NCBI GenBank assembly: GCA_902560725.1
Contig: CACEMR010000001.1
Coordinates: 65,027-129,026, forward strand
Source of the DNA: an uncultured Alphaproteobacteria bacterium
Lineage (GTDB): Bacteria > Pseudomonadota > Alphaproteobacteria > HIMB59 > GCA-002718135
Direction: 5' to 3'
DNA: 64,000 nucleotides
Numbering within the stretch: position 1 is the first letter of the stretch; each line of letters starts with the position of its first letter. A program made the translations under genes and the position numbers. Below, piece by piece: positions 2,425 through 35,797 of this stretch. The notes beneath the pieces were generated by a model. The model had not been told where the DNA came from and searched no databases. It saw nothing but the letters and a program-made list of their open reading frames with translations.

Positions 2425-3628
2425 CAAAAAAAATTTTTGCGTTTTGATTTAATAAATTGTTAATATCTCTTTCTATTATAAATTGTGACAGCTCAAAATT
2501 TTTCTTTGAAAGATCTTCATAATATTCATATAGAATCTCATGTAAAATATTTTTGAAATGAGACCATTTATATATAAGCTGATCATTAACTCTTGCATCG
2601 GAATGTTGAGGTATAAATGACAGACCTAGCATATCAATCCTCATTTTTAGAACAATTTTTATAATACTTGGCTGATTCATAAACCACCAAAAACCAAAGA
2701 TTTTTAAATTAGGATGTTTACGAGCCAAAACAGTTAATTCGTACTGATCATTTAAAGATAAACAAGTTACAAGAAATTTGTTTTCTGGAAAAGAGTTGCA
2801 TAATCTACTTAGTTCTTTAAGATTAATATCACCAATCCCATCACCGGCTAAACCAAAACTGCTATTTACAGCTCTTTTAACACCTAGCATTAAAGACAAT
2901 GGGATATTTTTTTCATTTAACCAAGACAAAATTAATTTCCAAAGAGGATCATTTAAAATTTCTTTAAAATTATCTGAATTTGCTGATATAGCTGCGTATA
3001 CTGGATTTGATATTAAAAAACAGCTATCTAAATAATTAATTATCACATCATTTTCTTTTTGATTTATATTAGTTTGATTTTTTGCAACATCAATTGCTTG
3101 AGCTTTATTACTTATTAAATCATCAAGTCGTAATGATGATTGAAATATATTTCTATCCCAGTTATTATTTTTAAATAAATTCCATTCATCAATATCAAAT
3201 GGATTATTAGTCATAACTAAGGAAGAAACATTAGATAATTTTAAAATTTTTTCATCTGTTAGATATTTATTTTCATATTCATTGTTTAGCTCTTCAAAAT
3301 TTTTATTATTGTAATTAATATCTAATTTTTGAAGAACAGTTAATACACCCTTACAAGCCTCAGATATTGGAGTTCTATTTTGAAATAGCTCTTCCCAAAT
3401 AAGTTTTGCTTTATTTTTTTTATCAAGAGAATAAAATTTTTCTGCACTTATATTTACATTGGTTAATAGTTCTGCAATTAAATAATGATAGTTTAATAAA
3501 TTAATCAAACCAGAAAGAGAGTGGCTTTTAAATACTGATGGAAATAAATGCGTATGAATATCAAATATTTTTGTATTATTAATAACTTTGTCTAGAGTGT
3601 GAGATAGTTCCTGATTAGACATGTTCAT
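2417..3628 (-). CDS. uronate (glucuronate) isomerase family protein, short form
   Basis: IFDIHTHLFP near the N-terminus (UxaC has FDYHCHLPP), VMTNNPFD (UxaC TTDDPID) and FGFWWFMNQ...SDAR (UxaC GSGWWFNDQ...TDSR). 403 aa versus about 470 aa for E. coli UxaC. Confidence 0.65.
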   Translation of the reverse strand: MNMSNQELSHTLDKVINNTKIFDIHTHLFPSVFKSHSLSGLINLLNYHYLIAELLTNVNISAEKFYSLDKKNKAKLIWEELFQNRTPISEACKGVLTVLQKLDINYNNKNFEELNNEYENKYLTDEKILKLSNVSSLVMTNNPFDIDEWNLFKNNNWDRNIFQSSLRLDDLISNKAQAIDVAKNQTNINQKENDVIINYLDSCFLISNPVYAAISANSDNFKEILNDPLWKLILSWLNEKNIPLSLMLGVKRAVNSSFGLAGDGIGDINLKELSRLCNSFPENKFLVTCLSLNDQYELTVLARKHPNLKIFGFWWFMNQPSIIKIVLKMRIDMLGLSFIPQHSDARVNDQLIYKWSHFKNILHEILYEYYEDLSKKNFELSQFIIERDINNLLNQNAKIFFVK

Positions 3629-4647
3629 TACTTAATATTGCCCAGCCTAATTGCTTTTTTTTGGGCTTTTATTGCCAATTCCATAACTTTTAAACAATGA
3701 GATTGATCCATTGCTGTGCTAGTTCTATCTACAACATCACTCATTAATCTCTGAAAATATGTAAGAGGCTCTTTAGAAGCATTTTTGTATTCATATTTTT
3801 TGTTATTAACTAAAAACAGATGATCTGTACCCTCTCTACCAACAATATCTACATACTTCCTTAATTCTATGTATCCTTTTGTGCCTAAAATGGTCAATCT
3901 TCCATCACCCCAATTAGGCAAGGCATCAGGTGTATACCAGTCTACCCTAATATAACCTCTCCCCTTATCCCCATGAATTAAAATTTCACCAAAATCTTCA
4001 AACTTATTATGTTTGGGATTTGAAAAATTTCCTGTTGATGAATTTATAATTTCTACATTTTTAGATCCAGTAAAAAATAAAAATTGATCTATTTGGTGTG
4101 ATGCAATATCACATAATATACCACCGTATTGATTATAATCAAAAAACCAATCAGGTCGAGTTTGAATGTTCAATCTATGAGGCCCCATTCCAATTGTTTG
4201 AATAACATCTCCAATTTCGCCCGCTTGAATCAAATCATAGGCTACTTGGACCGAGGGTACTTCAAATCTTTCAGAAAAATCAATTGAAAAAATTTTTCCT
4301 GTTTTTTTTATAGTATTTTCAATTTCTTTAAGTTGTTCTAAACTTGTACAACCAGGCTTATCTAACATTACATCTTTTCCAGCATTCATACATTCAATAG
4401 CTAAAGCTGATCTTTTAACAGGGATGTCTGCTATCAATACTAATTCAATTTCTTTATTTTTTAATAAATCATCTTTATTTTTAAAGCGGGGTATATCAGG
4501 ATGTTTTTTAATAAAATCTTCTGTAATATTGTTATCAGTTTCATTCCACCAACCAACACATTCACATCCCAAATTTAACATACCATTTAATTGTCCAAAA
4601 ATGTGCCTATGCTCAACACCCATTGCAGCTACTTTAATTTTTCTCAT
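3628..4647 (-). CDS. Gfo/Idh/MocA-like oxidoreductase (atypical N-terminal nucleotide motif)
   Basis: MLDKPG (EKP-like) and GGILCDIASHQIDQF C-terminal domain pattern. The N-terminus reads VAAMGVEHRH instead of the canonical GxGxxG. Confidence 0.7.
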   Translation of the reverse strand: MRKIKVAAMGVEHRHIFGQLNGMLNLGCECVGWWNETDNNITEDFIKKHPDIPRFKNKDDLLKNKEIELVLIADIPVKRSALAIECMNAGKDVMLDKPGCTSLEQLKEIENTIKKTGKIFSIDFSERFEVPSVQVAYDLIQAGEIGDVIQTIGMGPHRLNIQTRPDWFFDYNQYGGILCDIASHQIDQFLFFTGSKNVEIINSSTGNFSNPKHNKFEDFGEILIHGDKGRGYIRVDWYTPDALPNWGDGRLTILGTKGYIELRKYVDIVGREGTDHLFLVNNKKYEYKNASKEPLTYFQRLMSDVVDRTSTAMDQSHCLKVMELAIKAQKKAIRLGNIK

Positions 4648-4658
4648 AATTAAATATT

Positions 4659-5687
4659 TTACTCCATTATAATTAATTTATTTTTTTTAGATGATTCTAT
4701 CATTGCATCAATTAGATAATGAACTTTCAATGCTTCTTTTCCGGTAATTTCAAATCTTTCATTAGTACTAATTGATTTTGCAAAATTAATTATGAGATCT
4801 TTATGCCAATCAAATGGGAAGGCCATAGGATCAGCGCTACCACCTGTTCCAGATTCTTCTCCAAACTCTTCTTTTTTACCATTCCTCCAATTAATTATTA
4901 GTGTTCCTGCTTCAAGTTTAACTGTTGCATTTTCACAATGAAGAACAATTGACTCTGATGAGCCTGGAAAAACACTCGTAGTAGCAAATAAAGATGCAAT
5001 TACACCATTTATAAATTTAATACCTCCAGTAACAAAATTTTCTGACTCCATTTTATGAAACTTTGTAGTTTCTGCCATTACCATCACCTCCTTAACATCT
5101 CCTAAAAGACTAATAGCAAGATCCAGTGTGTGAATAGCTTGACTTATAAGAACTCCTCCACCATCTCTTTCATAGGTTCCTCTTCCCGGATCGTCATAAT
5201 AGGATTGTTCTCTCCACCAAGGAACATTGATTTGAGCTGAAAAAATTTGACCAAATTTATTATCACTAATTAATGATTTTAATTTAATTGAGGATTTTCT
5301 AAATCTATGTTGAAAAACTATACCAAGGTTAACTTTATTATTTTCACAAATTGAAACTATGTTTTTTGCATTTTCTAAAGTGCGTTCAATTGGTTTTTCC
5401 ATCAAGATATGTTTTCCATATTTGCTAAATTGTTCGACCAGTTCTAAACGTTGATTTGGAGGAGTAATGATATCAACCATTTCAATTTCAGGATTGTTAT
5501 AAATACTGTCAATATCTTGAAATGTATTAAAATTATAATTTTTAGAAAAATTTTCCTTTCTTTCTTTATTTCGGGAAAAAACTCCTACTACATTAATATC
5601 ATCTTTCAATTCATTCAAAGCCAAGGCATGAGGCTTTGCGGCCATACCAGTGCCAATAATGGCAAGACCAATTTTTTTTGAACCCAT
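4659..5687 (-). CDS. Gfo/Idh/MocA family oxidoreductase
   Basis: IGLAIIGTGMAAKPH Rossmann motif, MEKPIE and GGGVLISQAIHTLD. Confidence 0.85.
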   Translation of the reverse strand: MGSKKIGLAIIGTGMAAKPHALALNELKDDINVVGVFSRNKERKENFSKNYNFNTFQDIDSIYNNPEIEMVDIITPPNQRLELVEQFSKYGKHILMEKPIERTLENAKNIVSICENNKVNLGIVFQHRFRKSSIKLKSLISDNKFGQIFSAQINVPWWREQSYYDDPGRGTYERDGGGVLISQAIHTLDLAISLLGDVKEVMVMAETTKFHKMESENFVTGGIKFINGVIASLFATTSVFPGSSESIVLHCENATVKLEAGTLIINWRNGKKEEFGEESGTGGSADPMAFPFDWHKDLIINFAKSISTNERFEITGKEALKVHYLIDAMIESSKKNKLIIME

Positions 5688-6769
5688 TAATTATTTTTTT
5701 TTGATACAGACATCCCATTCTCTTCAAAAAGATGCACTGAATCTCTTTTAAAACGGAGATATAATTCTTCTCCCTTATTAATTTTATACTGTCCTGTATG
5801 ATGAACGATTAATTGTTTTATACCTTCCCCCTGACAATAAAAATAAGTTTCACTCCCTAGTTGTTCAGTAAAATCAACATTTACTTTTAAATCTGAGTCT
5901 TGGTGTTCACAAACTTCTATATGTTCAGGTCTTATTCCAAAAGAATAAGGTGAATTATTTTTTAAATTTTTGTGATTTGTTTGCAAATTCAATGCATCTG
6001 AAACTAAATTAAATGAACCAGCATTATCAATTGCATTAACTTTTATAAAATTCATTTTTGGAGACCCAATAAAACCAGCTACAAAAATATCACTGGGATT
6101 ATTATATAAATCAAGTGGCGCTCCAGCTTGTGCAACATAACCATTATTTAAAACTACAATTTGATCAGCCAATGTCATTGCCTCAACTTGATCATGCGTA
6201 ACATAAATCATTGTACCGCCTATCTTTTCATGAAGTGCTGATAATTCTTTTCTCATTGTTACTCTCAATTCAGCATCAAGATTAGATAATGGTTCATCAA
6301 ACAAGAAGGCTTTTGGATCTCTAACTATTGCTCTACCAATTGCTACCCTTTGTCGTTGACCACCAGAAAGTGCTTTTGGTTTTCTTTGAAGATACTCTTC
6401 AATTTGTAAGAGTTTAGCTGCGCTATTTACTTTTTCTTCTATTGTTTTTTTATCAATTTTTAGATTTTCTAGAGCAAAGGCCATGTTTTTAAAAACAGAC
6501 ATATGTGGATACAAAGCATACGATTGAAAAACCATAGCTAAACCTCTTTCTGAAGCAGGTATATTACTTACTTCATTGCCATCAATTAAAATTTCTCCAG
6601 AGGTAATTCTTTCTAATCCAGCTATTATCCTTAATAATGTTGACTTACCACAGCCAGAAGGGCCTACTAAAACTAGAAATTTACCACTTTCAACTTTTAA
6701 ATCAACTCCATGGATCACTTCTGTTTGATCATAGCTTTTAAAAATATCTTTTAGAATAATTTCAGTCAT
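5687..6769 (-). CDS. sugar ABC transporter ATP-binding protein (MalK/UgpC type)
   Basis: Walker A GPSGCGKST, signature LSGGQRQR, Walker B FLFDEPLSNLD and a C-terminal TOBE-like regulatory domain. Confidence 0.9.
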   Translation of the reverse strand: MTEIILKDIFKSYDQTEVIHGVDLKVESGKFLVLVGPSGCGKSTLLRIIAGLERITSGEILIDGNEVSNIPASERGLAMVFQSYALYPHMSVFKNMAFALENLKIDKKTIEEKVNSAAKLLQIEEYLQRKPKALSGGQRQRVAIGRAIVRDPKAFLFDEPLSNLDAELRVTMRKELSALHEKIGGTMIYVTHDQVEAMTLADQIVVLNNGYVAQAGAPLDLYNNPSDIFVAGFIGSPKMNFIKVNAIDNAGSFNLVSDALNLQTNHKNLKNNSPYSFGIRPEHIEVCEHQDSDLKVNVDFTEQLGSETYFYCQGEGIKQLIVHHTGQYKINKGEELYLRFKRDSVHLFEENGMSVSKKNN

Positions 6770-7779
6770 CTATCTCTTCTCATTATTGCTTTATCAGGGT
6801 CGGCATGTTGTAAATATGAGGGTGGCACTCCATTTAGAATTTTTTTTATATCATTCATCATCATATCTCTTATATTTTTATACGAATAATCTAAAGCACC
6901 TGCAACATGTGAAGTAAATAAAACATTAGATTTTTTTCTAAAAATTGAATCTTTTGGGACAGGCTCAACTGGATATACATCTATAGCGGCTCTAAAATAT
7001 TCATTTTCAGCAAGTTCAACAAATGCTTCAAAATCAACTACCTCTGCTCTACTAACTAGAATTACTGAACTATTTTTTTTAATTAATTTTAATTTATCTT
7101 TGCTAATAAAACCTTCATTTTCAGTAGTTACTCCCGCAAGTATAAATATAAAATTATTTTTTGATAATAAATCATCAATCGAAACAGGATTTACACCCTG
7201 ACTTTTTAAATATTCATTTGATAACCAGGGATCAAATACTGAAATTTTACAATTAAATGGTTTTAATAAAGGAAGTAAACTTTTTGCTAAATTTCCAAAG
7301 CCAATAAATCCTACATTAGAGTCAAAAAGTGTGTAAGCAAATTTATTTTCTTTAATTCCATATTGCTCTTCAGAATTTATAAATTTTTTATAAACTCCTA
7401 AAACATTTCTAGATAGTGAAATTGCGTAACCAACACAAGCTTCTGCAACAGCAGGAGCCATTGCAGGTGCGGCCGATAAAACATAAATACCTCTTCTATG
7501 TGCTTCATGATAATCAATATTAGGTTCCCAATTTGCTTTGACATTTATAATGGCTTTTATTTTTTTTGATCTATCTAAACGTTCTTTTGGCATGGCAGTC
7601 TGACCAACCAATATTGCAATTTCTTCAATATTTTTTTCTACAAGTTCATCAGGAGCTCGACTGCCAAAGTGATAAACTAATTTTGATATTTTTTTTAATT
7701 CAGACTTAACATCATCAGTAAAAACCATTTCTTCATTTCTTGGATAAGGATCAAAAAATATTAAAGGTTTATCTTGCAT
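6766..7779 (-). CDS. D-isomer-specific 2-hydroxyacid dehydrogenase
   Basis: GFIGFGNLAKS NAD motif, SRAEVVD and TSHVAG catalytic-region motifs. I moved the start to the internal ATG at 7779 (MQDKPL...), which forms a TAATG junction with the upstream permease stop. The 37-aa extension in the ORF track lies inside the permease gene. Confidence 0.8.
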   Translation of the reverse strand: MQDKPLIFFDPYPRNEEMVFTDDVKSELKKISKLVYHFGSRAPDELVEKNIEEIAILVGQTAMPKERLDRSKKIKAIINVKANWEPNIDYHEAHRRGIYVLSAAPAMAPAVAEACVGYAISLSRNVLGVYKKFINSEEQYGIKENKFAYTLFDSNVGFIGFGNLAKSLLPLLKPFNCKISVFDPWLSNEYLKSQGVNPVSIDDLLSKNNFIFILAGVTTENEGFISKDKLKLIKKNSSVILVSRAEVVDFEAFVELAENEYFRAAIDVYPVEPVPKDSIFRKKSNVLFTSHVAGALDYSYKNIRDMMMNDIKKILNGVPPSYLQHADPDKAIMRRDR

Positions 7780-8843
7780 TACTTCATACCTGTACTTGCT
7801 ATTCCAGTAGTTATAAATTTTTGAAGATATGTAAATATAATTGCTATAGGTAATAAAGTTACCATAGTCATTGATAGTACATAGTTCCACTGACTGGTTA
7901 ACTCTCCATGAAATGCATTGAGTCCAATTTGTAATGTATATACTTCACTTTTTGATAAAACTATTAAAGGCCATAAGAAATCGTTCCATCTCCACATTAT
8001 TGAAAAAATTGCTAAAACTGCAATAGCCGGTATAGATAATGGTAACACAACTCTCCAATAAATTGCCCACTCGCTAGCATGGTCCATTCTTGCTGCCTCA
8101 ATAAGCTCTCGAGGTAATGTAAGCATATATTGACGAAGTAAAAAAACTCCTGTTGGTGTTGCTGCACCTGGCAGAATTACACCCCATAATGAATTAATCA
8201 TTCCAAAGTTAGCAACAACATAAAATACTGGAACTAGGATTATGGTTAAAGGAATTAGCAACGTGCCTATTACAAAAACAAGTGCAAAGTTTTTTCCTCT
8301 AAACTCATAAATAGATAGTGCGTAAGCTGCCATTGAATTTATTATTAACGTTATTATTGTTGCAACAACTGTAATAAAAGTTGAGTTTTTAAAATAAAGT
8401 AAAAAATCATACTTCCTTAAAGGGTCGACGTAATTCTCCCATTGTATCTTAAACTCTCTTACCTTTTCTCTTTTATCTATAGGAACCTTGATAGTTTCTT
8501 CTGGATTTAAAGGATCAACCATTTTGGCATTAATTCCAATTCTTTTAATTTGTGCAAGCTGCTTAACTGACCCATCCTCTTGAGTAACATTAAAAATTGG
8601 TAACGGCTTGTCGTATCCTTCAACATCAACTTGAATTTGTGAAAGTGGTAGAATTGTTGGAGGATATTCTTGTATCCCTGCTAATGTTTTGAGTGAAGAT
8701 AAACCCAACCAAACAACAGGACCAAACATTAAAAGAACGCCTAAAAATAAATAAAAATAAGAAAAATAATCTGTCCAATGATATTTATTTTTATATCTTT
8801 TTTTTGTAGCAATTTTTATGATTCTTGAAGCTGTATCAGACAT
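7779..8843 (-). CDS. carbohydrate ABC transporter permease (MalG-like) with a large periplasmic loop
   Basis: Multiple TM segments and the EAA loop EAARMDHASEWAIYWRVVLP. Confidence 0.85.
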   Translation of the reverse strand: MSDTASRIIKIATKKRYKNKYHWTDYFSYFYLFLGVLLMFGPVVWLGLSSLKTLAGIQEYPPTILPLSQIQVDVEGYDKPLPIFNVTQEDGSVKQLAQIKRIGINAKMVDPLNPEETIKVPIDKREKVREFKIQWENYVDPLRKYDFLLYFKNSTFITVVATIITLIINSMAAYALSIYEFRGKNFALVFVIGTLLIPLTIILVPVFYVVANFGMINSLWGVILPGAATPTGVFLLRQYMLTLPRELIEAARMDHASEWAIYWRVVLPLSIPAIAVLAIFSIMWRWNDFLWPLIVLSKSEVYTLQIGLNAFHGELTSQWNYVLSMTMVTLLPIAIIFTYLQKFITTGIASTGMK

Positions 8844-26091: not shown

Positions 26092-27141
26092 ATGTTAACT
26101 ACAGTAATTGGCGCTTATCCCAAACCATCTTATATAGAAATTACTGATTGGTTTAATGCTAAAGGTGGAACTGATACTGAACATCCAACTAAATTTTATA
26201 ATAATGAAATTAATAAAATGGGTTATAAAGTTGAAGAACTATTCAATAAAGCAACTAAAGAAATAATTAGTGATCAAGAAGAATGTGGTATAGATATTTT
26301 GACTGATGGTGAAGTTAGAAGAGAAAATTATATTCATTATCATTGTAGATATCTTGAAGGTATAGATTTTGATAATCTTACTGAAAAAGTTGCAAGGACT
26401 GGTAATTACAAATGTTGGCTTCCAACCATAACTGAAAAGATTAAAGCTAAAGGCTCTTTTTTAGTTGAGGAGTGGAAAAATAATCAAAAACTTACCTCAA
26501 AACCAATAAAAATTACAATTCCAGGACCCATGACTATAACAGATACTATAGCAAATACATTTTATAATTCAGATCAAGAGATGGGTGAGGATCTAGCTGA
26601 TGCAATAAATGTAGAAATAAAAAGATTAGTTGATGCTGGATGTAAATATATACAAGTTGATGAACCATTGTTTGCACGAAAACCAGAAAATGCTCTAAAT
26701 TTCGGAATTAAAAATTTAGAAAGATGTTTTAAAAATATTGAAGATCAAAATATTGAAAAAATAACTCACATTTGTTGTGGTTACCCTGATAAATTAGATG
26801 CAATTGATTATCCAAAAGCACCTTTAAATTCTTATAGTAAAATTAGTAGAGAGCTGGATGAGTCAATTATAGATACGGTTTCTATCGAAGATGCTCATCG
26901 TTACAACAACCTAGAATTTTTAAAAGATTTTAAAAATACAAAAATTATTTTTGGATTAATAAAAATTGCAAGTTCTCAAATAGAAAGCAAAGAAGAAATA
27001 GTTACAAGAATAAAAGATGCTTTACAATTTATTGACAAGGAGCAATTAATTGTAGCTCCAGATTGTGGACTAGGTCATTTAACTAGAGATTTGGCAAAAA
27101 TTAAATTAAAAATTATGGTTCAAGCTGCTAGAAGTTTCTAG
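26092..27141 (+). CDS. cobalamin-independent methionine synthase (MetE) catalytic-domain-only family protein
   Basis: 349 aa. Zn-ligand pattern THICCGYP (His-x-Cys) and APDCGLGH (Cys) with the (Y)IQVDEP motif. It lacks the N-terminal barrel of full-length MetE. Confidence 0.65.
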   Translation: MLTTVIGAYPKPSYIEITDWFNAKGGTDTEHPTKFYNNEINKMGYKVEELFNKATKEIISDQEECGIDILTDGEVRRENYIHYHCRYLEGIDFDNLTEKVARTGNYKCWLPTITEKIKAKGSFLVEEWKNNQKLTSKPIKITIPGPMTITDTIANTFYNSDQEMGEDLADAINVEIKRLVDAGCKYIQVDEPLFARKPENALNFGIKNLERCFKNIEDQNIEKITHICCGYPDKLDAIDYPKAPLNSYSKISRELDESIIDTVSIEDAHRYNNLEFLKDFKNTKIIFGLIKIASSQIESKEEIVTRIKDALQFIDKEQLIVAPDCGLGHLTRDLAKIKLKIMVQAARSF

Positions 27142-28253
27142 TGTACTAAAGTTTCTGGATTAACATATTCATAACTCAGATCATCAGCAATAGCTTTATA
27201 CGTCACTGAGCCTTTATAAATATTTAGACCATTCATAAAATTTTTGTCATTTTTTAGAGCTTTATTAAAACCATTTGTAGCTAAATTTTGAATGAAAGGT
27301 AAAGTAACTGCATTTAATGCAAGAGTAGAGGTTCTAGGAACGCCTCCGGGCATATTTGCAACGCAATAATGAACTACATCGTCAACGATGTATGTAGGAT
27401 TTGCGTGTGTTGTTGGTTTACTTGTTTCAACACATCCCCCTTGATCTATTGCTACATCAACAATTACAGATCCGCTTTTCATTTCTTTAATCATTTGTTT
27501 GGTAATGATTTTTGGAGCATTTGAACCAGGCACAAGCACCCCTCCGACTAATAAATCACATTCAGAAATATAATCCTGAATATTTATTTTATCACTATGA
27601 AGAGGTTCAATTTTATCTCCAAATTTTTCTTTCAATTCATCTAATCGTTTTTCTGATTTGTCTACTATGAAAACTTTTGCTTGCATTCCTGTTGCAATAA
27701 TTGCTGCATTTTCTCCAACAACACCTCCTCCTAAAATAAAAACTTTACCCGGTAAAACTCCAGGAGCACCACCTAACAGTAAACCACTTCCACCTTTATG
27801 TCTTTCAAGTGAGTAAGCACCTGCTTGGATAGACATTCTTCCAGCAACAGCACTCATCGGAGCTAAAAGAGGTAGTTTGTTATTATGATCACTTACAGTT
27901 TCATAAGCTATACAAATTGATTTTGAATCAATTAGGCCTTTTGTCAATTGAGGAGCAGCAGATAGATGTAAATAAGTAAATAAAATTTGATTTTCTTTTA
28001 ACATTGCTACCTCATTCATTAGAGGTTCTTTAACTTTAATAATCATGTCAGATGTATTAAAAATATCTTCTGCTGAATTTAAAATTTTTGCACCAGAATT
28101 TTCATAATCGCTATTTGAAAAGCCTGCCCCAAGACCTGCATTATTTTGAATCAAAACAGTATGGTTGTCTTTAACTAATTCTTTTACACTTTGTGGTGTA
28201 AGTCCGACTCTAGATTCTTGGTCCTTAATCTCAGAAGGAACTCCAACTTTCAT
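27138..28253 (-). CDS. ald: alanine dehydrogenase
   Basis: MKVGVPSEIKDQESRVGLTP N-terminus, ILGGGVVGENAA NAD motif, 371 aa. TAATG junction with the upstream aminotransferase. Confidence 0.9.
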   Translation of the reverse strand: MKVGVPSEIKDQESRVGLTPQSVKELVKDNHTVLIQNNAGLGAGFSNSDYENSGAKILNSAEDIFNTSDMIIKVKEPLMNEVAMLKENQILFTYLHLSAAPQLTKGLIDSKSICIAYETVSDHNNKLPLLAPMSAVAGRMSIQAGAYSLERHKGGSGLLLGGAPGVLPGKVFILGGGVVGENAAIIATGMQAKVFIVDKSEKRLDELKEKFGDKIEPLHSDKINIQDYISECDLLVGGVLVPGSNAPKIITKQMIKEMKSGSVIVDVAIDQGGCVETSKPTTHANPTYIVDDVVHYCVANMPGGVPRTSTLALNAVTLPFIQNLATNGFNKALKNDKNFMNGLNIYKGSVTYKAIADDLSYEYVNPETLVH

Positions 28254-29593
28254 TATCTATCATGCATATAGTTTGAGATACCAGTTCGTAATTTTTCGAT
28301 AATCTCATCTATATGTTTTTTCTCACAAATAAATGGTGGAGCAACGATTAAACAATCCCCTGTAGCTTTAAGACTTAAACCAGCTTCAAAAAGTTTTTTA
28401 AAACAAGCGTATCCAGCTTTACCAAGTCTTTCATCCATTTTAATATCTATACCACCCATCATACCATAACCTCTAATGTCAGTAATAATATCCAAATCTT
28501 TAAGACTAAAAAGACCATCTAAAAAATAAGGTGACATATCTTTGGCCCTATTAAATAAATCTTCTTTTTCAATTATATCTTGCATCGCTAATCCAGCAGC
28601 CATTGAAACCGGTATTGCCGAATAAGTATATCCATGAAAGAATTCAATTGCACCAGTTGGTGAAGCATCAATAATTGTATCGTATATTCCATCCCTTGAA
28701 GCAACTGCGCCAAGAGGAACTACACCATTTGTAATAGCTTTAGCCATTGTCATAATATCAGGACATACATCAAAAGCTTGTGCTCCAAAAGGGGCTCCCA
28801 TTCTTCCCCATCCTGTTATAACTTCATCAAAAATTAATAAAATTCCATGTTTATCACATAACTCTCTTAGTCTTTTTAAATACCCTTTTGGAGGAACTAA
28901 TGTGCCAGTTGATCCTGCAACTGGTTCAACAATACATGCAGCAATATTTTCAGCTCCAATATTACCTGCTATTCTCTCTAAATCATCAGCTAAATCTGCA
29001 CCATTCTCTGGCTCACCTTTTACATATTTATTTTCAGGTAAATGAGTATGTCTAAGATGATGAACATTTGGCATTAGAATATTTGAAAAAGTTTTTCTAT
29101 TAGCTATCATACCACCAACAGAAATACCTCCGATATTCATGCCATGATAACCTCTCTCCCTTCCAACTATGTGTGACCGATGTCCTTCTCCTTTTGCTTT
29201 AAAATAAGCAATTGCTGTTTTAATGGCTGTCTCCACGGCAGAAGATCCACAAATTGTAAAAAAAATTTTGTTTAAGTCTTCAGGTGTGTGTTTAGAAATT
29301 TTTCTTGCTAAATCAAATGAGCCACCAAAACCTTGTTGAAAAGGTTGAACATAATCTAATTGTTCTAATTGATTTGAAACTGCTTCACGAATTTCTGGTC
29401 GTGAATGACCAGCTGGACTACAAAATAAACCAGAACTGGCATCAATTAACTGATTACCATAATGATCTGTATAATAAACACCTTCTGCTTTAACCATTAA
29501 TCTAGGGCTATTTTTATAATCCCTATTAGAGGTAAATGGCATCCAATGTTCTTCTAGAGAATTTGGTATTTCAGTTCTTTTTTCTAAGTCCAT
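28253..29593 (-). CDS. class III aminotransferase, omega-amino acid:pyruvate type (candidate taurine:pyruvate aminotransferase)
   Basis: HWMPFTSNR, GYHG, FDEVITGWGRMG, the PLP-lysine context MTMAKAITNG and HGYTYS. Translationally coupled to ald. Confidence 0.85.
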   Translation of the reverse strand: MDLEKRTEIPNSLEEHWMPFTSNRDYKNSPRLMVKAEGVYYTDHYGNQLIDASSGLFCSPAGHSRPEIREAVSNQLEQLDYVQPFQQGFGGSFDLARKISKHTPEDLNKIFFTICGSSAVETAIKTAIAYFKAKGEGHRSHIVGRERGYHGMNIGGISVGGMIANRKTFSNILMPNVHHLRHTHLPENKYVKGEPENGADLADDLERIAGNIGAENIAACIVEPVAGSTGTLVPPKGYLKRLRELCDKHGILLIFDEVITGWGRMGAPFGAQAFDVCPDIMTMAKAITNGVVPLGAVASRDGIYDTIIDASPTGAIEFFHGYTYSAIPVSMAAGLAMQDIIEKEDLFNRAKDMSPYFLDGLFSLKDLDIITDIRGYGMMGGIDIKMDERLGKAGYACFKKLFEAGLSLKATGDCLIVAPPFICEKKHIDEIIEKLRTGISNYMHDR

Positions 29594-29711: not shown

Positions 29712-30611
29712 ATGACTGCATTACCAGAAGATCTTAAAAATATAGCTATAAAGACACCTAAGATTTCAGCCGCAGTGGTTTGTCCTGATCAAGAGACTGT
29801 ATTATCTGCAGTGAAAGAAGCAAAAGATATAAATTTAATCAATCCAACTTTAATAGGCGACAAAAATTTAATTGCAGAAACTGCAATAAAATTAAATTTG
29901 GATATTAAAGATTATAATATTATAGAAACAAGCGACAGAGAAGAAAGTGCTGCAGTTGCCTGTCAAATGGCAAGTGAAAATAAAATAAAAATTATTATTA
30001 AAGGAAATTTACATACAGATATTTTAATGAGATTTTATTTAAAAAAAGAATTTTCTTTACTTGAAGGTAAAAGACTAAGTCATATTTGGCATATGACAGC
30101 ACCTGAACTAAAAAAACCTCTTTTTATAACTGATGGTGCACTAAATGTTTTGCCTCGAGTTGAAATTAAATTACAAATCTTAAAAAATGCTGTTCAGTTT
30201 TGTAATAAATTAAATATTTCCAAACCAAAAGTTGCAATTTTATCTGGAACAGAGGATCCGATAGATAGTATGCCAAGTTCTATAGAAGCTAAAAAAGTTA
30301 TGGAACAAGCGCATGAAGAAAAAATTAATGCCTTTATTCATGGTCCTCTTGCATTCGATAATGCTGTGTCTGAACAAGCTGCTAAAATAAAAAATATAGA
30401 TAATGAAGTAGCTGGTAAAGCGGATATAATATTAGTTCCTAATTTAGAAACTGGAAATTCTCTATCCAAAATGATGGTCTATTTTATGAATGCTTGTGCT
30501 GCTGGAATAGTTATTGGAGGTAAGACACCTGTAGTTGTACCTAGTAGAGCAGATAGCAAAAATTCAAAAATAGCATCAATTATGGCTGCAGTAGTCGCAA
30601 TCCAAAATTGA
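29712..30611 (+). CDS. pta: phosphate acetyl/butyryl-transferase (short Pta type)
   Basis: 299 aa with PTA_PTB-like segments (HGPLAFDNA, ADIILVPNLETGN, PSRADS). This short form commonly accompanies xsc. Confidence 0.7.
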   Translation: MTALPEDLKNIAIKTPKISAAVVCPDQETVLSAVKEAKDINLINPTLIGDKNLIAETAIKLNLDIKDYNIIETSDREESAAVACQMASENKIKIIIKGNLHTDILMRFYLKKEFSLLEGKRLSHIWHMTAPELKKPLFITDGALNVLPRVEIKLQILKNAVQFCNKLNISKPKVAILSGTEDPIDSMPSSIEAKKVMEQAHEEKINAFIHGPLAFDNAVSEQAAKIKNIDNEVAGKADIILVPNLETGNSLSKMMVYFMNACAAGIVIGGKTPVVVPSRADSKNSKIASIMAAVVAIQN

Positions 30612-31501: not shown

Positions 31502-31897
31502 TTACTTTAATTCTCCTTTAGTTCGCATTTCATTTCTAATTTTAGTTGCAGAAATATCGTGAATTTCTTTTCCTAAGTCATGTTCAGTAAATGAATATCC
31601 AACTCCCCTTCCATATGAAATATCAATAATATTTGGAACTTTTACTACAACATACTCTTTGCCTTCAGAATATCCATGCTTACTTAACCCTTCATTAATT
31701 TTATTTTTTACTTCTTCAAATTGAAAAGGGTTGTCAGCCTGACCTTCTACACCTGCATCGACCCCGCCTACATCTCTATACATAATACAAACTTGACCAG
31801 TCTTTTGTAAAGCTCTCTTAAATAATTCTGTATGACCATCATGCCATGGTTGCCATCTACCTAGCATTTGTACAGTTGGTTTTTTCCAATCAAACAT
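31502..31897 (-). CDS. minimal HxGH nucleotidyltransferase (cytidylyltransferase-like / NadM-like fold)
   Basis: 131 aa. GRWQPWHDGH (HxGH motif) near the N-terminus and ISATKIR near the C-terminus, which are the two hallmark motifs of the nucleotidyl-transferase alpha/beta phosphodiesterase superfamily. Confidence 0.55.
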   Translation of the reverse strand: MFDWKKPTVQMLGRWQPWHDGHTELFKRALQKTGQVCIMYRDVGGVDAGVEGQADNPFQFEEVKNKINEGLSKHGYSEGKEYVVVKVPNIIDISYGRGVGYSFTEHDLGKEIHDISATKIRNEMRTKGELK

Positions 31898-32303
31898 TCT
31901 TAATCTCCTTTGCTAAATTTTCAATTTCTTCATCTGATAAAAACTTTGTTATTTTAATATCTGTTTTAATTGGCTGTTCGAACATTTTATTTGTATCTTC
32001 AAATCTACCTTCTTTAATTGTATCTAACCAAATAACAAAATCAGGATTGAATGCCTCTCTAGCTTTTTCAGTTGGGGCTACAAAATCACACATTACCCAC
32101 CGACCATTTTGTTTTTCAAAATCAGCAAATGTTTTCATTCTATTTGCTTGTCTAATTCGGCCTTCCATCGAAAAATCCCAATCATTAGCAGATTTTCTAA
32201 CTATATCTGCATTATACCATGCGCAATTTTCAATCACTTTTATAAGTCTCTCAGCAAGCCAAGTTTTTCCAGAACCAGGAAGTCCACAAATAAGTATTTT
32301 CAT
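31890..32303 (-). CDS. P-loop kinase, adenylylsulfate (APS) kinase-like
   Basis: 137 aa. Walker A GLPGSGKT is followed by YNADIVRKSANDWDFSMEGRIRQANRM...FVAPTEKAR, which aligns by eye with the CysC pattern LDGDNVR...LGFS..DR.ENIRR...FISP....R. Confidence 0.5.
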   Translation of the reverse strand: MKILICGLPGSGKTWLAERLIKVIENCAWYNADIVRKSANDWDFSMEGRIRQANRMKTFADFEKQNGRWVMCDFVAPTEKAREAFNPDFVIWLDTIKEGRFEDTNKMFEQPIKTDIKITKFLSDEEIENLAKEIKNV

Positions 32304-32316
32304 TTTTTATATTGAA

Positions 32317-33102
32317 TTAGTTTCTTGCAATAAAGTACGGGTTAATAACATTTTCTTTAGTGTTGTATAGTATTTTATTATTATCAATATTATTGATTGA
32401 GCCACCTGCTTCTTCTAAAATAATATGACCTGCTGCTATATCCCATTCTGAAGTCGGTCCTAACCTAGGATAAATATCTGCGCCTCCCTCTGCAAGAAGA
32501 CAAAATTTTAATGAACTGCCTATTTTTACTAATTCATAAGAATTTAAATTATCGCTTAGCCATTTCTCAAACTTCTTATTAGAATGAGAACGACTACCGA
32601 TAACTCTAACAACATCGTTTGATTTTTTGTAAGTTTTAATGATCTTAAATTCATCAACAGTTTCAATGTTTGAATTAGTAATTATTTTAAAAGCTCCATT
32701 ATTTTTGATAGCATAATAAAGAAGAGATTTTGCAGGAGCATAAATGACACCAAATATTGGATAATTTTTTTCAATTAAAGAAATATTAACTGTAAATTCA
32801 CCATTTTTATTTATAAATTCTTTGGTTCCATCAAGTGGATCTATTAACCAGTATTTTTGCCACTCTTTTCTCTCATTCCAATCAATTAAACTTTCTTCAC
32901 TCAAAATTGGAAAGTTTGGTTCCAAGTTTTGCAATCTATTAATTATAATTTTATTTGAATTAATGTCAGCTTTTGTAAGAGGTGAATTATCTTCTTTAGA
33001 TTTTACAATTATATCATCATTATAAATTTTTAAAATTTCTTTACCGGCATCAATTGCAATGTTTAATATTTCCAAAAGTATTTTTGGATCATTTAATTTC
33101 AT
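32317..33102 (-). CDS. cysQ: 3'(2'),5'-bisphosphate nucleotidase (inositol monophosphatase family)
   Basis: WLIDPLDGTKEF and WDIAAGHIILEEAGG motifs; 261 aa. Confidence 0.8.
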   Translation of the reverse strand: MKLNDPKILLEILNIAIDAGKEILKIYNDDIIVKSKEDNSPLTKADINSNKIIINRLQNLEPNFPILSEESLIDWNERKEWQKYWLIDPLDGTKEFINKNGEFTVNISLIEKNYPIFGVIYAPAKSLLYYAIKNNGAFKIITNSNIETVDEFKIIKTYKKSNDVVRVIGSRSHSNKKFEKWLSDNLNSYELVKIGSSLKFCLLAEGGADIYPRLGPTSEWDIAAGHIILEEAGGSINNIDNNKILYNTKENVINPYFIARN

Positions 33103-33107
33103 AATAT

Positions 33108-34019
33108 CTAAATATAAATAAAATACATATAACTAAAATACAAAACTAACCCTATAACTCCGTAAGTTCTGCCTAGTTTTTTTGATAAATACATAAAACC
33201 AAGAATCATAAAAGTTATCAAAAGCATGAAAATTAAATCTTGTTTTGCTAAAACATTAGGCATTGAAAAATGATCAAAAAAAGAAATAACACCTAATACT
33301 CCCAATACATTATAAATATTAGATCCTAAAATATTACCTAAGGCAAAATCTACTTTTCTCTTAAGTGCAGACATAACACCAACTACTAACTCAGGAAGTG
33401 ATGTGCCAAAAGCAATCAATGATAATCCAATAACAGTTTCAGAAACACTAAAGGTGTTTGCTAAATTTATTGCAGAACTTACAAATAACTCAGATCCATA
33501 AATTAGAAAAACTATACCAATTATAATCAAGGAAATTGAAATTATTGTTGAGTAATCCCCTTTATTAATTTCATCTATGTTTACAGATCCTCTTTTGATC
33601 TGAATGTACATAATAAATGTTAGTAAAGTTAATGATAGAATTCCAAATACAAAATTAAAATAAAAGTAACTCATAAAAATTAGAGCTATGCCTAGTACAA
33701 TATTTATCCAAGCTTGATTAATTTGATTATTATTAATATTAGTTATTGGAAAAATTATTGTAGTTGCTGCCATTACTAAAATTAAATTTGCAATATTACT
33801 TCCAACAACTGCGCCTAATGCTAAATCTGCATGTTGAGTAATAACCGCATTAATACTACTTGCTAATTCAGGAAGAGAAGTTCCTCCTGCAACAATGACG
33901 ACACCTATCGCAAAAAGAGAAATATTTAATTTTTTTCCAAAACTAACTGATCCCCTTATGACTACTTCTGCTCCAGCAACCAGAATAATCAAACCTAAAA
34001 TTAAATATAAAAAATCCAC
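33108..34019 (-). CDS. CaCA-family cation (Na+/Ca2+) exchanger, YrbG-like
   Basis: Two alpha-repeats GGTSLPELASS and FGTSLPELVVG, about 10 TM helices. Confidence 0.8.
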   Translation of the reverse strand: MDFLYLILGLIILVAGAEVVIRGSVSFGKKLNISLFAIGVVIVAGGTSLPELASSINAVITQHADLALGAVVGSNIANLILVMAATTIIFPITNINNNQINQAWINIVLGIALIFMSYFYFNFVFGILSLTLLTFIMYIQIKRGSVNIDEINKGDYSTIISISLIIIGIVFLIYGSELFVSSAINLANTFSVSETVIGLSLIAFGTSLPELVVGVMSALKRKVDFALGNILGSNIYNVLGVLGVISFFDHFSMPNVLAKQDLIFMLLITFMILGFMYLSKKLGRTYGVIGLVLYFSYMYFIYI

Positions 34020-34027
34020 TTAATAAA

Positions 34028-35797
34028 TTATTGAATAACAGTGTCTTTTGGATCTATTCCTGCGACTTCAACAGGTGTTTTCATTGCATCCCTTCTAAAT
34101 GGCTCTCCAAGTTCTTGATTTAACATAACTTCTATAAAAGTTGTGATACCTTCCATTTGTTCCTTACAAGAAAGTTTTAGTGCTTCTGTTAGCTCTTCTT
34201 GTGTATGGGCTATTATTCCTTTAAAGCCACAAGCTTCAGCTATTTTTGCATAACTTAGTTTTGGGTCAAGTTCGGTTCCTATGAAATTATTATCATACCA
34301 AAGAGTTGTGTTTCTTTTTTCTGCGCCCCATTGATAGTTTCTAAATATTATCATTGTAATATTAGGCCATCCTTCTCTATTGCAAGACGTCATTTCACTC
34401 ATACTAATACCAAATGCACCATCACCAGCAAATCCAACTACAGGTGTATTTGGACACCCAATTTTAGCTCCTAACACAGATGGAAAACCGTATCCACATG
34501 GGCCAAACAAACCTGGAGCTAAATATTTTCTTCCATTTTCAAAAGTTGGGTATGCGTTACCAATTGCACAATTATTTCCAATATCACTAGATATGATTGC
34601 ATCTTCCGGTAAGCCAGCCTGTATAGCTCTCCAGGCCATTCTTGGAGACATTTTCTCTGGCTCCCTATCTCTTGAATCCTTATTCCAAGAGGTACCAGGA
34701 TCATCATCTTCATGATCAAGACCAGTTAATGTTTGTAACCATGATGATTTTTTTTGATGTATAAATTCTTCTCTTTCTTTTCTGTTTTCATCTCCGGCAG
34801 TGGATGAAAGATTTTCTAATATTTGCTTAGAAACTAATTTAGCATCTCCACAAATGCCAACGCTAATTTTTTTTGTTAATCCAATTCTATCCGAATTAAT
34901 ATCTACTTGAATTATATCTGCATTTTTAGGCCAGTAATCTATACCATATCCTGGGAGAGTAGAAAATGGATTCAGTCTTGTTCCTAGAGCAAGAACCACA
35001 TCTGCTTTTGAAATTATTTCCATTGCTGCTTTTGAACCATTGTATCCTAGTGGACCAATAGCTAAGGGATGTTTTCCAGGAAAACTATCATTATGTTGAT
35101 AACCACATGCCACAGGTGCGCTTAATTTTTCAGATAATTTTTTACAGTCATCAATAGCGTCAGATAAAATTACTCCTGCACCAGATAATATAACAGGAAA
35201 TTTTGCATTAGATAATAGTCCTGCTGCTTTTTTGATTGCATCGATACCTCCGGTTGGTCTTTCAAATTTAATAATTGAAGGCAGTTCAATATCAACTACT
35301 TGTGTCCAATAATCTCTTGGTATATTTAATTGTGCAGGTGCTGAACCTTTAATGGCTTTTGAAATTACTCTGTTTAATACTTCTGCAACTCTAGTTGGAT
35401 CTCTTACTTCTTCTTGATAACAAACCATATCTTTAAATAAATTCATTTGTTCAACTTCTTGAAATCCACCCTGACCCATAGTTTTATTTGCGGCTTGAGG
35501 TGTTACTAATAACATTGGTGTGTGATTCCAATATGCTGTTTTAATTGGAGTAACAAGTCCGGTTATTCCTGGTCCATTTTGTGCAATACACATAGCGATT
35601 TTTCCTGTTGATCTAGTGTATCCATCAGCCATTATTCCACCGTTTGACTCATGAGCTACATCCCAAAATGTAATTCCAGCTTTAGGGAATAAATCAGAAA
35701 TTGGCATAAAGGCAGATCCTATAATGCCAAAAGCATGCTGTATGCCATGTTTTTGCAAAACTTTTACAAATGCTTCTTCTGTTGTCATTTTCGGCAT
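34028..35797 (-). CDS. xsc: sulfoacetaldehyde acetyltransferase
   Basis: The N-terminus MPKMTTEEAFVKVLQKHGIQHAFGIIGSAFMPISDLFPKAGITFWD matches my memory of Xsc very closely. ThDP motif GDGAFGISMSEMTS...N. 589 aa, with AGGGAG upstream of the ATG. Confidence 0.85.
   Translation of the reverse strand: MPKMTTEEAFVKVLQKHGIQHAFGIIGSAFMPISDLFPKAGITFWDVAHESNGGIMADGYTRSTGKIAMCIAQNGPGITGLVTPIKTAYWNHTPMLLVTPQAANKTMGQGGFQEVEQMNLFKDMVCYQEEVRDPTRVAEVLNRVISKAIKGSAPAQLNIPRDYWTQVVDIELPSIIKFERPTGGIDAIKKAAGLLSNAKFPVILSGAGVILSDAIDDCKKLSEKLSAPVACGYQHNDSFPGKHPLAIGPLGYNGSKAAMEIISKADVVLALGTRLNPFSTLPGYGIDYWPKNADIIQVDINSDRIGLTKKISVGICGDAKLVSKQILENLSSTAGDENRKEREEFIHQKKSSWLQTLTGLDHEDDDPGTSWNKDSRDREPEKMSPRMAWRAIQAGLPEDAIISSDIGNNCAIGNAYPTFENGRKYLAPGLFGPCGYGFPSVLGAKIGCPNTPVVGFAGDGAFGISMSEMTSCNREGWPNITMIIFRNYQWGAEKRNTTLWYDNNFIGTELDPKLSYAKIAEACGFKGIIAHTQEELTEALKLSCKEQMEGITTFIEVMLNQELGEPFRRDAMKTPVEVAGIDPKDTVIQ

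Follow-up and report, generated by a model that had tools for sequence, protein, structure and literature searches.

Two small adjoining genes, here called K and NT, are the subject of this report. They lie in a 64,000-nucleotide stretch of DNA (the window) from an uncultured alphaproteobacterium; K encodes a P-loop kinase resembling the kinases of adenosine 5′-phosphosulfate (APS), and NT encodes a nucleotidyltransferase with an HxGH motif. Upstream of them lie xsc, a gene for a CaCA-family membrane transporter and cysQ, so that five genes follow one another head to tail on the minus strand in the order xsc, CaCA, cysQ, K and NT. The intervening gaps are 8, 5 and 13 nt, the last of these separating cysQ from K, and K then overlaps NT by 8 nt; the coordinates of the open reading frames (ORFs) agree exactly with this arrangement as it was originally predicted. 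Since no terminator-like site was found on the minus strand from xsc to NT, co-transcription of the five genes from xsc to NT is possible. Sulfate activation is now the best-supported reading of the K–NT pair, with the substrate of NT and the direction of flux being what we infer.

Table 1. Genes of the window that are discussed in the text, with window coordinates and supporting matches.
Feature	Position	Strand	Evidence
NT, 131-aa HxGH nucleotidyltransferase	31502-31897	-	ORF and motifs; weak NadM/NMN adenylyltransferase matches
K, 137-aa minimal APS-kinase-like P-loop kinase	31890-32303	-	Pfam APS_kinase 29.9 bits
cysQ, 3′(2′),5′-bisphosphate nucleotidase (3′-phosphoadenosine 5′-phosphate, PAP, phosphatase)	32317-33102	-	TIGR01331 295 bits vs cutoff 228.8
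CaCA-family membrane transporter gene, between xsc and cysQ	33108-34019	-	Na_Ca_ex 169 bits; TIGR00367 196 bits
xsc, sulfoacetaldehyde acetyltransferase	34028-35797	-	NF005713 1015 bits; TIGR03457 940 bits
Alanine dehydrogenase	27138-28253	-	TIGR00518 484 bits
Omega-aminotransferase	28253-29593	-	NF052567 586 bits
Phosphate acetyltransferase	29712-30611	+	NF006045/NF008852 270-295 bits

Kinase K resembles an abbreviated APS kinase

The translation of K contains the motifs GLPGSGKT (residues 7–14), NAD (31–33), DIVR (33–36), FSMEGR (44–49) and FVAPTEKAR (74–82). Its match to the Pfam family APS_kinase (PF01583) lies above the gathering cutoff of 21.1 bits, and its best sequence match in the PDB is the Aeropyrum APS kinase 2yvu (7.8e-7). 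The AlphaFold2 model of K has a predicted local distance difference test score (pLDDT) of 96.6, and the top Foldseek matches of this model are the APS kinases of plants, fungi, humans, archaea and Mycobacterium tuberculosis, with query-normalised TM-scores (TMq) of 0.77–0.84. A profile–profile comparison by hhalign aligned the K family with the flavobacterial CysC of a cysDN operon over its full length at 97.7% probability, with the lid shortened.

The residues that contact APS are known for M. tuberculosis CysC, in which the first Asp of the LDGD motif binds Mg2+ through water and the second, Asp480, is placed at the 3′-OH of APS; Arg483 and Arg497 lie on the phosphosulfate, Phe492 and Phe576 sandwich the adenine, and the backbone amides of Ile523 and Ser524 provide further contacts (PMC4373884). 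The equivalents in K of Asp480, Arg483, Phe492, Arg497 and Phe576 are D33, R36, F44, R49 and F101, with Ile523/Ser524 corresponding to V75/A76. The LDGD position of the window's K reads Y-N-A-D, its second Asp being D33. Across 69 family sequences, G7, G12 and K13 of the P-loop are invariant, as are D33, R36, F44, R49, F74 and P77; F101 is kept in the family consensus and in every sequence inspected, with the canonical spacing F(+7)F/Y(+10)P. K is thus like CysC (PF01583, TIGR00455) in its P-loop, the catalytic Asp of LDGD, the Arg/Phe/Arg/Phe contacts to APS, the F-x-x-P strand motif and the fold. From its sequence and model, we read K as a minimal APS-kinase-type 3′-kinase for an adenosine 5′-phospho-anion, most simply APS. 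In a set of clades linked to apr genes (loci L011–L017, e.g. L016:7514-8008), K is 164 residues long and carries a ~27-residue insertion exactly at the shortened lid.

NT resembles a truncated NadM-type adenylyltransferase

The motifs of NT are GRWQPWHDGH (residues 13–22, with WHDGH at 18–22), NPF (56–58), VPNI (87–90), YGRGVGY (95–101) and ISATKIR (115–121), and the features GRxQPxHxGH, NPF, VPNI, YGRDVGY and ISATxIR are invariant or nearly so across its family. All of the K and NT motifs quoted in the original prediction are present in the translations, and they are not chance matches, because each is invariant or nearly so across the respective family. The proposed alignment of K with the CysC core was likewise upheld by its Pfam score, its fold and its APS-contact residues.

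As a single sequence, NT matches NCBIfam families weakly, among them the NadM-type nicotinamide mononucleotide (NMN) adenylyltransferase (NMNAT) family NF002243 (5.7e-7); all of these scores lie far below the cutoffs, as with one of 29.3 vs 127 bits. Used as a profile against the PDB, the NT family matched the NadM-type NMNAT 1f9a best (3e-11, over the N-terminal two thirds only), followed by NadR at 1e-3, and recovered no Sat entry up to E = 1. The alignments with NMNATs end near residues 83–87 of NT. The AlphaFold2 model of NT (pLDDT 88) has three strands as assigned by DSSP, and its C-terminal third has no regular sheet. Foldseek placed NMNATs (4yp7/2qjt/2r5w) at a TMq of ~0.5, phosphopantetheine adenylyltransferases (PPATs) at ~0.45 and Sat at 0.35–0.43, always over ~85 columns, and the C-terminal third of the model matched no solved nucleotidyltransferase; a BFVD fold search added no further information.

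NT therefore has two faces when it is set beside NadM and the archaeal NMNATs (1f9a, 1ej2/4yp7, 2qjt). It shares with them GRxQPxHxGH, NPF and ISxTxxR, and the first three strand–helix units superpose over ~85 residues with a root mean square deviation of 2–3 Å. Unlike them, it is ~40–50 residues shorter (131 residues vs 168–181), the NMNAT segment after strand 3 has no counterpart, and a family-specific VPNI...YGRDVGY stretch replaces the part beyond NMNAT residue ~80, which we take to carry the nicotinamide pocket. By its sequence and model, NT is a truncated offshoot of the NadM branch that has kept the ATP-handling motifs and lost the post-strand-3 segment. The retention of HxGH and ISxTxxR in a protein without that segment fits a much smaller second substrate.

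Neither was NT recognisable as a member of the known sulfurylase families. Its match to the Pfam family of Sat-type ATP sulfurylases (PF01747) had an E value of 0.11 over 19 residues, and a Pfam scan gave no PAPS_reduct or PP-loop (CysD-type) match. The candidacy of NT as a Sat homologue was rejected, the hhalign alignment reaching the HxGH region only. By eye, the YGRDVGY of NT resembles the GRD(HAG) loop of Sat; hhalign does not align the two, and we treat this as resemblance only. Judged by sequence, NT is neither a Sat family member nor a bona fide NMNAT, and it fails the family tests for Sat, CysD and full-length NMNAT alike.

K and NT are a near-obligate pair in marine bacteria and phages

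Gene order was read in the best 80 genome loci and in 80 viral loci, and neighbouring genes were scanned over 165 K–NT pairs to distances of up to 8 kb. The homologues of NT were drawn from a library clustered at 50% identity and with a phage fusion protein as the query, a direct search with NT having returned near-identical SAR11 metagenome sequences. K lies directly upstream of NT in 63 of the 80 genome loci and in 50 of the 80 viral loci; one small gene separates the two in a further 20 viral loci and in none of the genome loci, and K is found farther upstream in five genome loci and two viral ones. K and NT are a near-obligate pair.

The two are also found as one polypeptide of ~245–270 residues, in the Xylella phages Salvo, Sano and Bacata, the Stenotrophomonas phages DLP_6, Suzuki and Bhz60, Xanthomonas phages and very many metagenomic proteins. 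The protein family PHROG 10255 (230 positions, labelled ‘kinase’) records such a fusion, with positions 2–122 matching K and 124–229 matching NT. The domain order is that of human PAPSS1, in which the sulfurylase part was aligned over residues 262–614.

The NT family comprises 1063 clusters at 50% identity, in which NT stands alone or C-terminal to K. At least 293 genomic relatives were confirmed among the 599 pattern matches listed; the best 80 are mainly SAR11-like and SAR86, and by taxon they belong to Pelagibacterales, MarineAlpha5, SAR86 and a few metagenome-assembled genomes of Bacteroidota. Relatives were also found on more than 563 viral contigs. The viral copies are 60–73% identical to the window's NT and those of SAR11 Ia 56–58%, which suggests exchange between phages and their hosts. 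The family is large and conflictingly annotated: source names for NT include ‘ATP sulfurylase’, NMNAT, nicotinic acid mononucleotide (NaMN) adenylyltransferase, PPAT and cytidyltransferase, and those for K include adenylylsulfate kinase, AAA ATPase and riboflavin kinase. A literature search found no description of a K–NT fusion or of a sulfurylase of 120–130 residues.

Departures from the paired arrangement were recorded as well. Nine genome loci have no K nearby, among them one from MarineAlpha5_Bin9 (L038:7177-8396) in which NT directly follows cysQ and no K is found within 8 kb. Five SAR11 Ia genomes (L048, L052, L063, L070 and L076) carry an insert of 2.4–4.4 kb between K and NT; the proteins encoded by the one that was read (L070:3378-8363) are large, repeat-rich and autotransporter-like. 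In the cluster at 90% identity to which the window's K belongs, some members have 226–259 residues; these may be fused or frameshift-joined K–NT proteins of very close relatives.

Sulfur genes recur beside K–NT

The assignments of Xsc, CysQ and the CaCA transporter in the window are solid, as judged by their profile scores (Table 1). Xsc catalyses the sulfite-releasing step of taurine breakdown, and its region, together with the genes for alanine dehydrogenase, the omega-aminotransferase and phosphate acetyltransferase, makes up a taurine-dissimilation cluster. The link to xsc, which headed the original prediction, did not extend beyond the window's own clade, xsc being present in the flanks of two of the 80 genome loci (L009 and L010). 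The broader claim of linkage to sulfur genes in other genomes held in part, as set out below, for aprMBA and cysQ and not for most SAR11 Ia and SAR86 loci. The window has a G+C content of ~29%. Among the matches listed, its closest relatives are single-cell genomes that carry the labels uncultured Alphaproteobacteria and MarineAlpha5; Pelagibacteraceae come next.

Three independent contexts tie K–NT to APS and 3′-phosphoadenosine 5′-phosphosulfate (PAPS): i) cysQ adjoins K–NT in the window's clade (L006–L010) and NT in L038, and the CaCA gene is kept beside cysQ in L006, L008, L009 and L010; ii) aprM-aprB-aprA flanks K–NT in seven SAR11-like loci (AprA, TIGR02061, 1002 bits; AprB, TIGR02060, 190 bits); and iii) DUF2061, described below, joins the phage module to a sulfate-activation operon. 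The aprMBA genes occur in two arrangements. In L011 and L012 they are divergent from K–NT, the interval from aprM to K being 125 bp and cysQ lying at the far end of the apr operon; in L013–L017 they are convergent with K–NT. The first arrangement is compact: cysQ (+), a 116-residue ORF, aprA, aprB and aprM (-), and K–NT (+) occupy ~5.3 kb (positions ~3050–8400). The conserved 116-residue ORF always lies immediately 3′ of aprA in L011–L017 (e.g. L016:8393-8743, minus strand) and has no Pfam or NCBIfam match; it may be an uncharacterised accessory protein of Apr. NT is immediately followed by an ArsC-family gene (PF03960, 3.7e-22) in one alphaproteobacterial locus (L012:8413-8766), and a gene that is ArsC-like by eye is convergent to NT in a SAR86 locus (L024:8385-8735).

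The aprMBA genes thus stand directly beside K–NT where, in the indirect oxidation of sulfite by Sat and AprBA, sat would be expected by function. Unlike that pathway, these loci have no Sat homologue, and they include an APS kinase and cysQ, which the classical route does not need.

DUF2061 is a two-helix membrane protein of 70 residues found within the phage module. Of the 20 viral loci with one small gene between K and NT, 19 have the DUF2061 gene there; in all, it adjoins NT in 23 viral loci, and it is found beside the fused K–NT gene in two further phage groups. The closest cellular relatives are flavobacterial, with 54–73% identity to the phage proteins, and in the two flavobacterial contexts read they sit in the operon cysQ-DUF2061-cysC-cysD-cysN near polysaccharide genes; in L172, the Bizionia-like one, this operon has a Sulfotransfer_1 gene beside it. 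K–NT loci share with it cysQ, DUF2061, a gene of APS-kinase type and an additional gene for adenylyl transfer. They differ in that NT takes the place of CysDN, the GTPase-coupled PP-loop sulfurylase, and in that the SAR11 and SAR86 loci lack DUF2061. Within 8 kb of the 165 K–NT pairs, no CysD, CysN or Sat was found. The parts present in phages and SAR11 are those of a known PAPS-supply operon, and NT thus stands where CysDN stands. A literature search on the function of DUF2061 returned nothing relevant.

Elsewhere the neighbours are of other kinds. Those of K–NT in SAR11 Ia are one-carbon and coenzyme A (CoA)-type genes, and those in SAR86 vary. In some SAR11 Ia loci (a cluster of 12; L081:8370-9221), a 283-residue HalD/WelO5-like Fe(II)/2-oxoglutarate enzyme (PF23169, 4.5e-12) is encoded between NT and enoyl-CoA hydratase.

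Phage loci

The flanks of K–NT were searched for sulfotransferases with regular expressions and Pfam scans, and no firm sulfotransferase was found next to K–NT. The strict PAPS-loop expression returned nothing, and a looser two-motif expression returned one phage ORF, in L169. This ORF and gp29 of phage Salvo were not counted as sulfotransferases, their Pfam matches being below threshold. In L169 (9393-13652), the fused K–NT gene is flanked by two QueC-like ORFs and DUF2061; the ORF in question, of 239 residues with PKTGT and RNPYKRFIS motifs, lies 2.2 kb downstream, and genes for UDP-glucose dehydrogenase and a carbamoyltransferase lie upstream.

In the Xylella phage Salvo (L001:5647-6677), the fused K–NT is gp32; gp30, with a NADAR domain (3.4e-25), is two genes upstream of it and gp29, which has a degenerate PRSRS loop, is three genes upstream. 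The annotation of Salvo gp24 as ‘cysteine dioxygenase’ was not reproduced by Pfam. In six further loci (L003–L005 and L166–L168, e.g. L003:8979-10768), a 341-residue PurA/PurZ-like homologue of adenylosuccinate synthetase overlaps the start of the fused gene by 4 nt, with an inosine monophosphate dehydrogenase (IMPDH)-like gene and several B12-binding radical SAM genes nearby; these may form a nucleotide-modification cluster.

Discussion

From these observations we rate K–NT, on sequence grounds, as a PAPS-synthase-like module whose minimal transferase is non-orthologous. The full proposal, that K and NT constitute a minimal two-polypeptide counterpart of PAPS synthase in which NT fills the slot of ATP sulfurylase, strikes us as evenly poised between right and wrong. 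That NT is the founding member of a NadM-derived class of ATP sulfurylases, ~120–130 residues long and working only with a miniature APS kinase, we hold to be marginally less probable than an even call. As in PAPS synthase (metazoan PAPSS1/2, and the Sat–APS kinase fusions such as Aquifex 2gks), a protein of APS-kinase fold is coupled to an adenylyltransferase of the HxxH superfamily, and the fused form has the kinase-then-transferase order of PAPSS1; K and NT also occur as neighbouring genes.

The ATP sulfurylase reaction is strongly unfavourable and is pulled forward by APS kinase and pyrophosphatase in the case of Sat and PAPS synthase, or by GTP hydrolysis in that of CysDN. In the proposed mechanism, NT would transfer the adenylyl group between pyrophosphate (PPi) and sulfate (ATP + sulfate <-> APS + PPi), K would phosphorylate the 3′-OH of APS to give PAPS and so pull the unfavourable NT reaction forward, and CysQ would remove PAP. 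A 131-residue NT without a GTPase partner would need the pull of K, which would account for the near-obligate pairing and the fusions. In SAR11-type cells that have AprBA and lack sat and cysDN, NT might instead run in reverse (APS + PPi -> ATP + sulfate) and would dispose of the APS made from the sulfite set free by Xsc and by other organosulfur pathways.

The gene content reported for SAR11 bears on this second direction. In Ca. P. ubique, cysDNCHIJ, sat and phsABC are reported to be missing and AprBA, which has been proposed to detoxify sulfite, to be present (Smith et al. 2016, PMC5069961). The table of that study lists ‘cysC’ and aprA for the same strains, and cysQ for all of them (PMC5069961). 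The K homologue of SAR11 Ia bears the NCBI name adenylyl-sulfate kinase, and therefore the ‘cysC’ of that table is very probably K.

A series of observations weighs against a sulfurylase role for NT and an APS kinase role for K. The significant sequence relatives of NT are NadM/NadR NMN adenylyltransferases only, and Sat structures rank below NMNATs in the fold comparison. When the NT profile was compared by hhalign with four Sat domains of the PDB (catalytic domains rebuilt from PDB alignments, the seed being a B. subtilis Sat sequence that scored up to 388 bits against genuine Sat entries), 23 columns around HxGH aligned, at 46% probability. The sulfate-binding QxRN motif is not present in NT, which has GRxQPWHxGH in the NadM register instead. 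In these respects, and in the shortened lid of K, the pair is unlike PAPS synthase, as it is in its NadM-like transferase half of 120–131 residues, which contrasts with a Sat catalytic domain of ~200 residues with a PUA-like N-domain.

The kinase raises doubts of its own. K scores below the cutoff of the NCBIfam equivalog TIGR00455 (21.6 vs 138.7 bits), and it has 137 residues, unlike CysC with its ~175–200. The lid of CysC spans ~30 residues and holds an ATP-stacking Arg and a catalytic Lys; that of K is ~16–20 residues shorter, the gap spanning the KGLYK segment and thus shortening the helix with the canonical Arg and Lys, for which the short IKEGR segment left in K might substitute. The first Asp of LDGD is Asn in most K members and Asp in phage Salvo. 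With a shorter lid and this Asn, a larger adenylylated acceptor is conceivable. Gene context also has its adverse side: in the majority of SAR11 Ia and SAR86 loci, no sulfur genes lie near K–NT; the phage neighbours belong mostly to replication and nucleotide metabolism (DnaB, UvsX, ThyX, PurA/PurZ-like, QueC-like and NADAR), are largely T4-like replication genes and do not inform function; the two sulfotransferase-like phage matches are below Pfam thresholds (Sulfotransfer_2, 6e-4, in L169; Sulfotransfer_4, 6e-4, in Salvo gp29); and DUF2061, a protein of no assigned function, is under iron regulation in proteobacteria.

The minimal sulfate-activation set that was first suggested for this locus therefore stands as regards the APS-kinase-like K and its context of cysQ, aprMBA and DUF2061, and falls as regards membership of NT in the Sat family. 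Profile–profile and structure comparisons, proposed at the time as a check, divided in the same way, identifying K as APS-kinase-like and leaving NT with a short match to Sat. The phage fusions, the large viral reservoir, the aprMBA neighbourhood and DUF2061 had no part in the original prediction.

The alternative put forward alongside it was a pair for the salvage of nicotinamide adenine dinucleotide (NAD), in which NT would be a small NMN or NaMN adenylyltransferase and K would phosphorylate a precursor or the product, for instance as a NAD 2′/3′-kinase yielding a NADP-like cofactor. On this view K–NT would be a split counterpart of the NadR-type kinase/adenylyltransferase, used by phages to boost the supply of cofactor. 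The nearest relatives of NT by sequence and by fold are indeed NadM-type NMNATs, and GRxQPxHxGH, NPF and ISxTxxR are NadM signatures; JGI calls some members NMN or NaMN adenylyltransferases; a NADAR-domain gene is two genes upstream of the fused gene of Salvo; and ThyX, which uses NADPH, is a frequent phage neighbour. The likeness to NMNATs, however, is limited to the first ~85 residues of NT, with the following segment gone, and the scores are far below the family cutoffs. K retains the two Arg and two Phe that clamp an adenosine 5′-phospho-anion and so is not nucleoside-kinase-like, and nadV, pnuC and nudix genes are not among the common neighbours of the 165 loci, whereas cysQ, aprMBA and DUF2061 are. 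A scan confined to the 64-kb window found no CoA or NAD motifs. We regard NAD salvage as unlikely.

Equally improbable, in our estimate, is that K is a true APS kinase and NT something other than a sulfurylase, whether an enzyme of another adenylyl transfer (e.g. APS + phosphate -> ADP + sulfate) or a non-catalytic or regulatory partner; in the non-catalytic variant, K would be needed to complete the truncated NT fold. The context of cysQ, aprMBA and DUF2061 applies equally to this possibility, AprBA of SAR11 alone can supply APS from sulfite (PMC5069961), and the three regular strands of the NT model, with a C-terminal third unlike that of solved nucleotidyltransferases, are in keeping with it. 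Phages with K–NT, on the other hand, have no Apr genes nearby and so need a source of APS; the invariance or near-invariance of HxGH and ISxTxxR argues for an active enzyme; and the slot beside DUF2061-cysC in the flavobacterial operon is filled by a sulfurylase, CysDN.

Less probable again is a phage-derived module with no sulfur role, acquired by streamlined marine bacteria from their phages, which would make another 3′-phosphorylated adenylyl compound (pAp, a modified nucleotide or a signal) for host takeover or counter-defence. The abundance of viral contigs and the closeness of viral NT to the window's NT accord with this, as do neighbours that include the translationally coupled PurA/PurZ-like gene, QueC-like genes, MazG and NADAR. 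Such neighbours are weak evidence, since phage early regions group genes by timing and not by pathway, and the repeated cellular linkage to cysQ and aprMBA and the link of DUF2061 to cysC-cysDN would be left unexplained. Finally, a CoA pair, with NT a small PPAT, K a dephospho-CoA 3′-kinase (the same chemistry as that of APS kinase) and CysQ clearing the PAP of phosphopantetheinyl transfer, is very improbable: PPAT structures fall only slightly behind NMNATs in their match to the NT model, the JGI name of the SAR11 Ia NT is ‘phosphopantetheine adenylyltransferase’, the genes for an enoyl-CoA hydratase (346 bits) and for a protein that is CoA-binding-like by eye lie downstream in SAR11 Ia, and a bulkier acceptor could fit under the shortened lid of K, but the sequence similarity to PPATs is not significant (E 0.04–0.9 for the NT profile against those of the PDB; NF001985, 17 vs 104 bits), the phage, SAR86 and window contexts have no CoA link, and the CoA-type neighbours are limited to one clade of tightly packed genome.

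The reading of K–NT as a sulfate-activation module has consequences for SAR11, which is more abundant in the surface ocean than any other bacterial group and is among the major consumers of organosulfur compounds, taurine included. AprBA, cysQ and ‘cysC’ are reported there and neither sat nor cysDN is (PMC5069961), and K–NT is a concrete candidate for the step by which SAR11 makes or consumes APS. If the proposal is correct, the pair would provide SAR11 with the ‘missing sat’ step beside AprBA and would give both SAR11 and SAR86 a route to PAPS. Viral ‘cysC’ genes have been counted as auxiliary genes of the sulfur cycle on homology alone (PMC10914622); if NT is a sulfurylase, they would be complete two-step PAPS synthases and not an isolated step.

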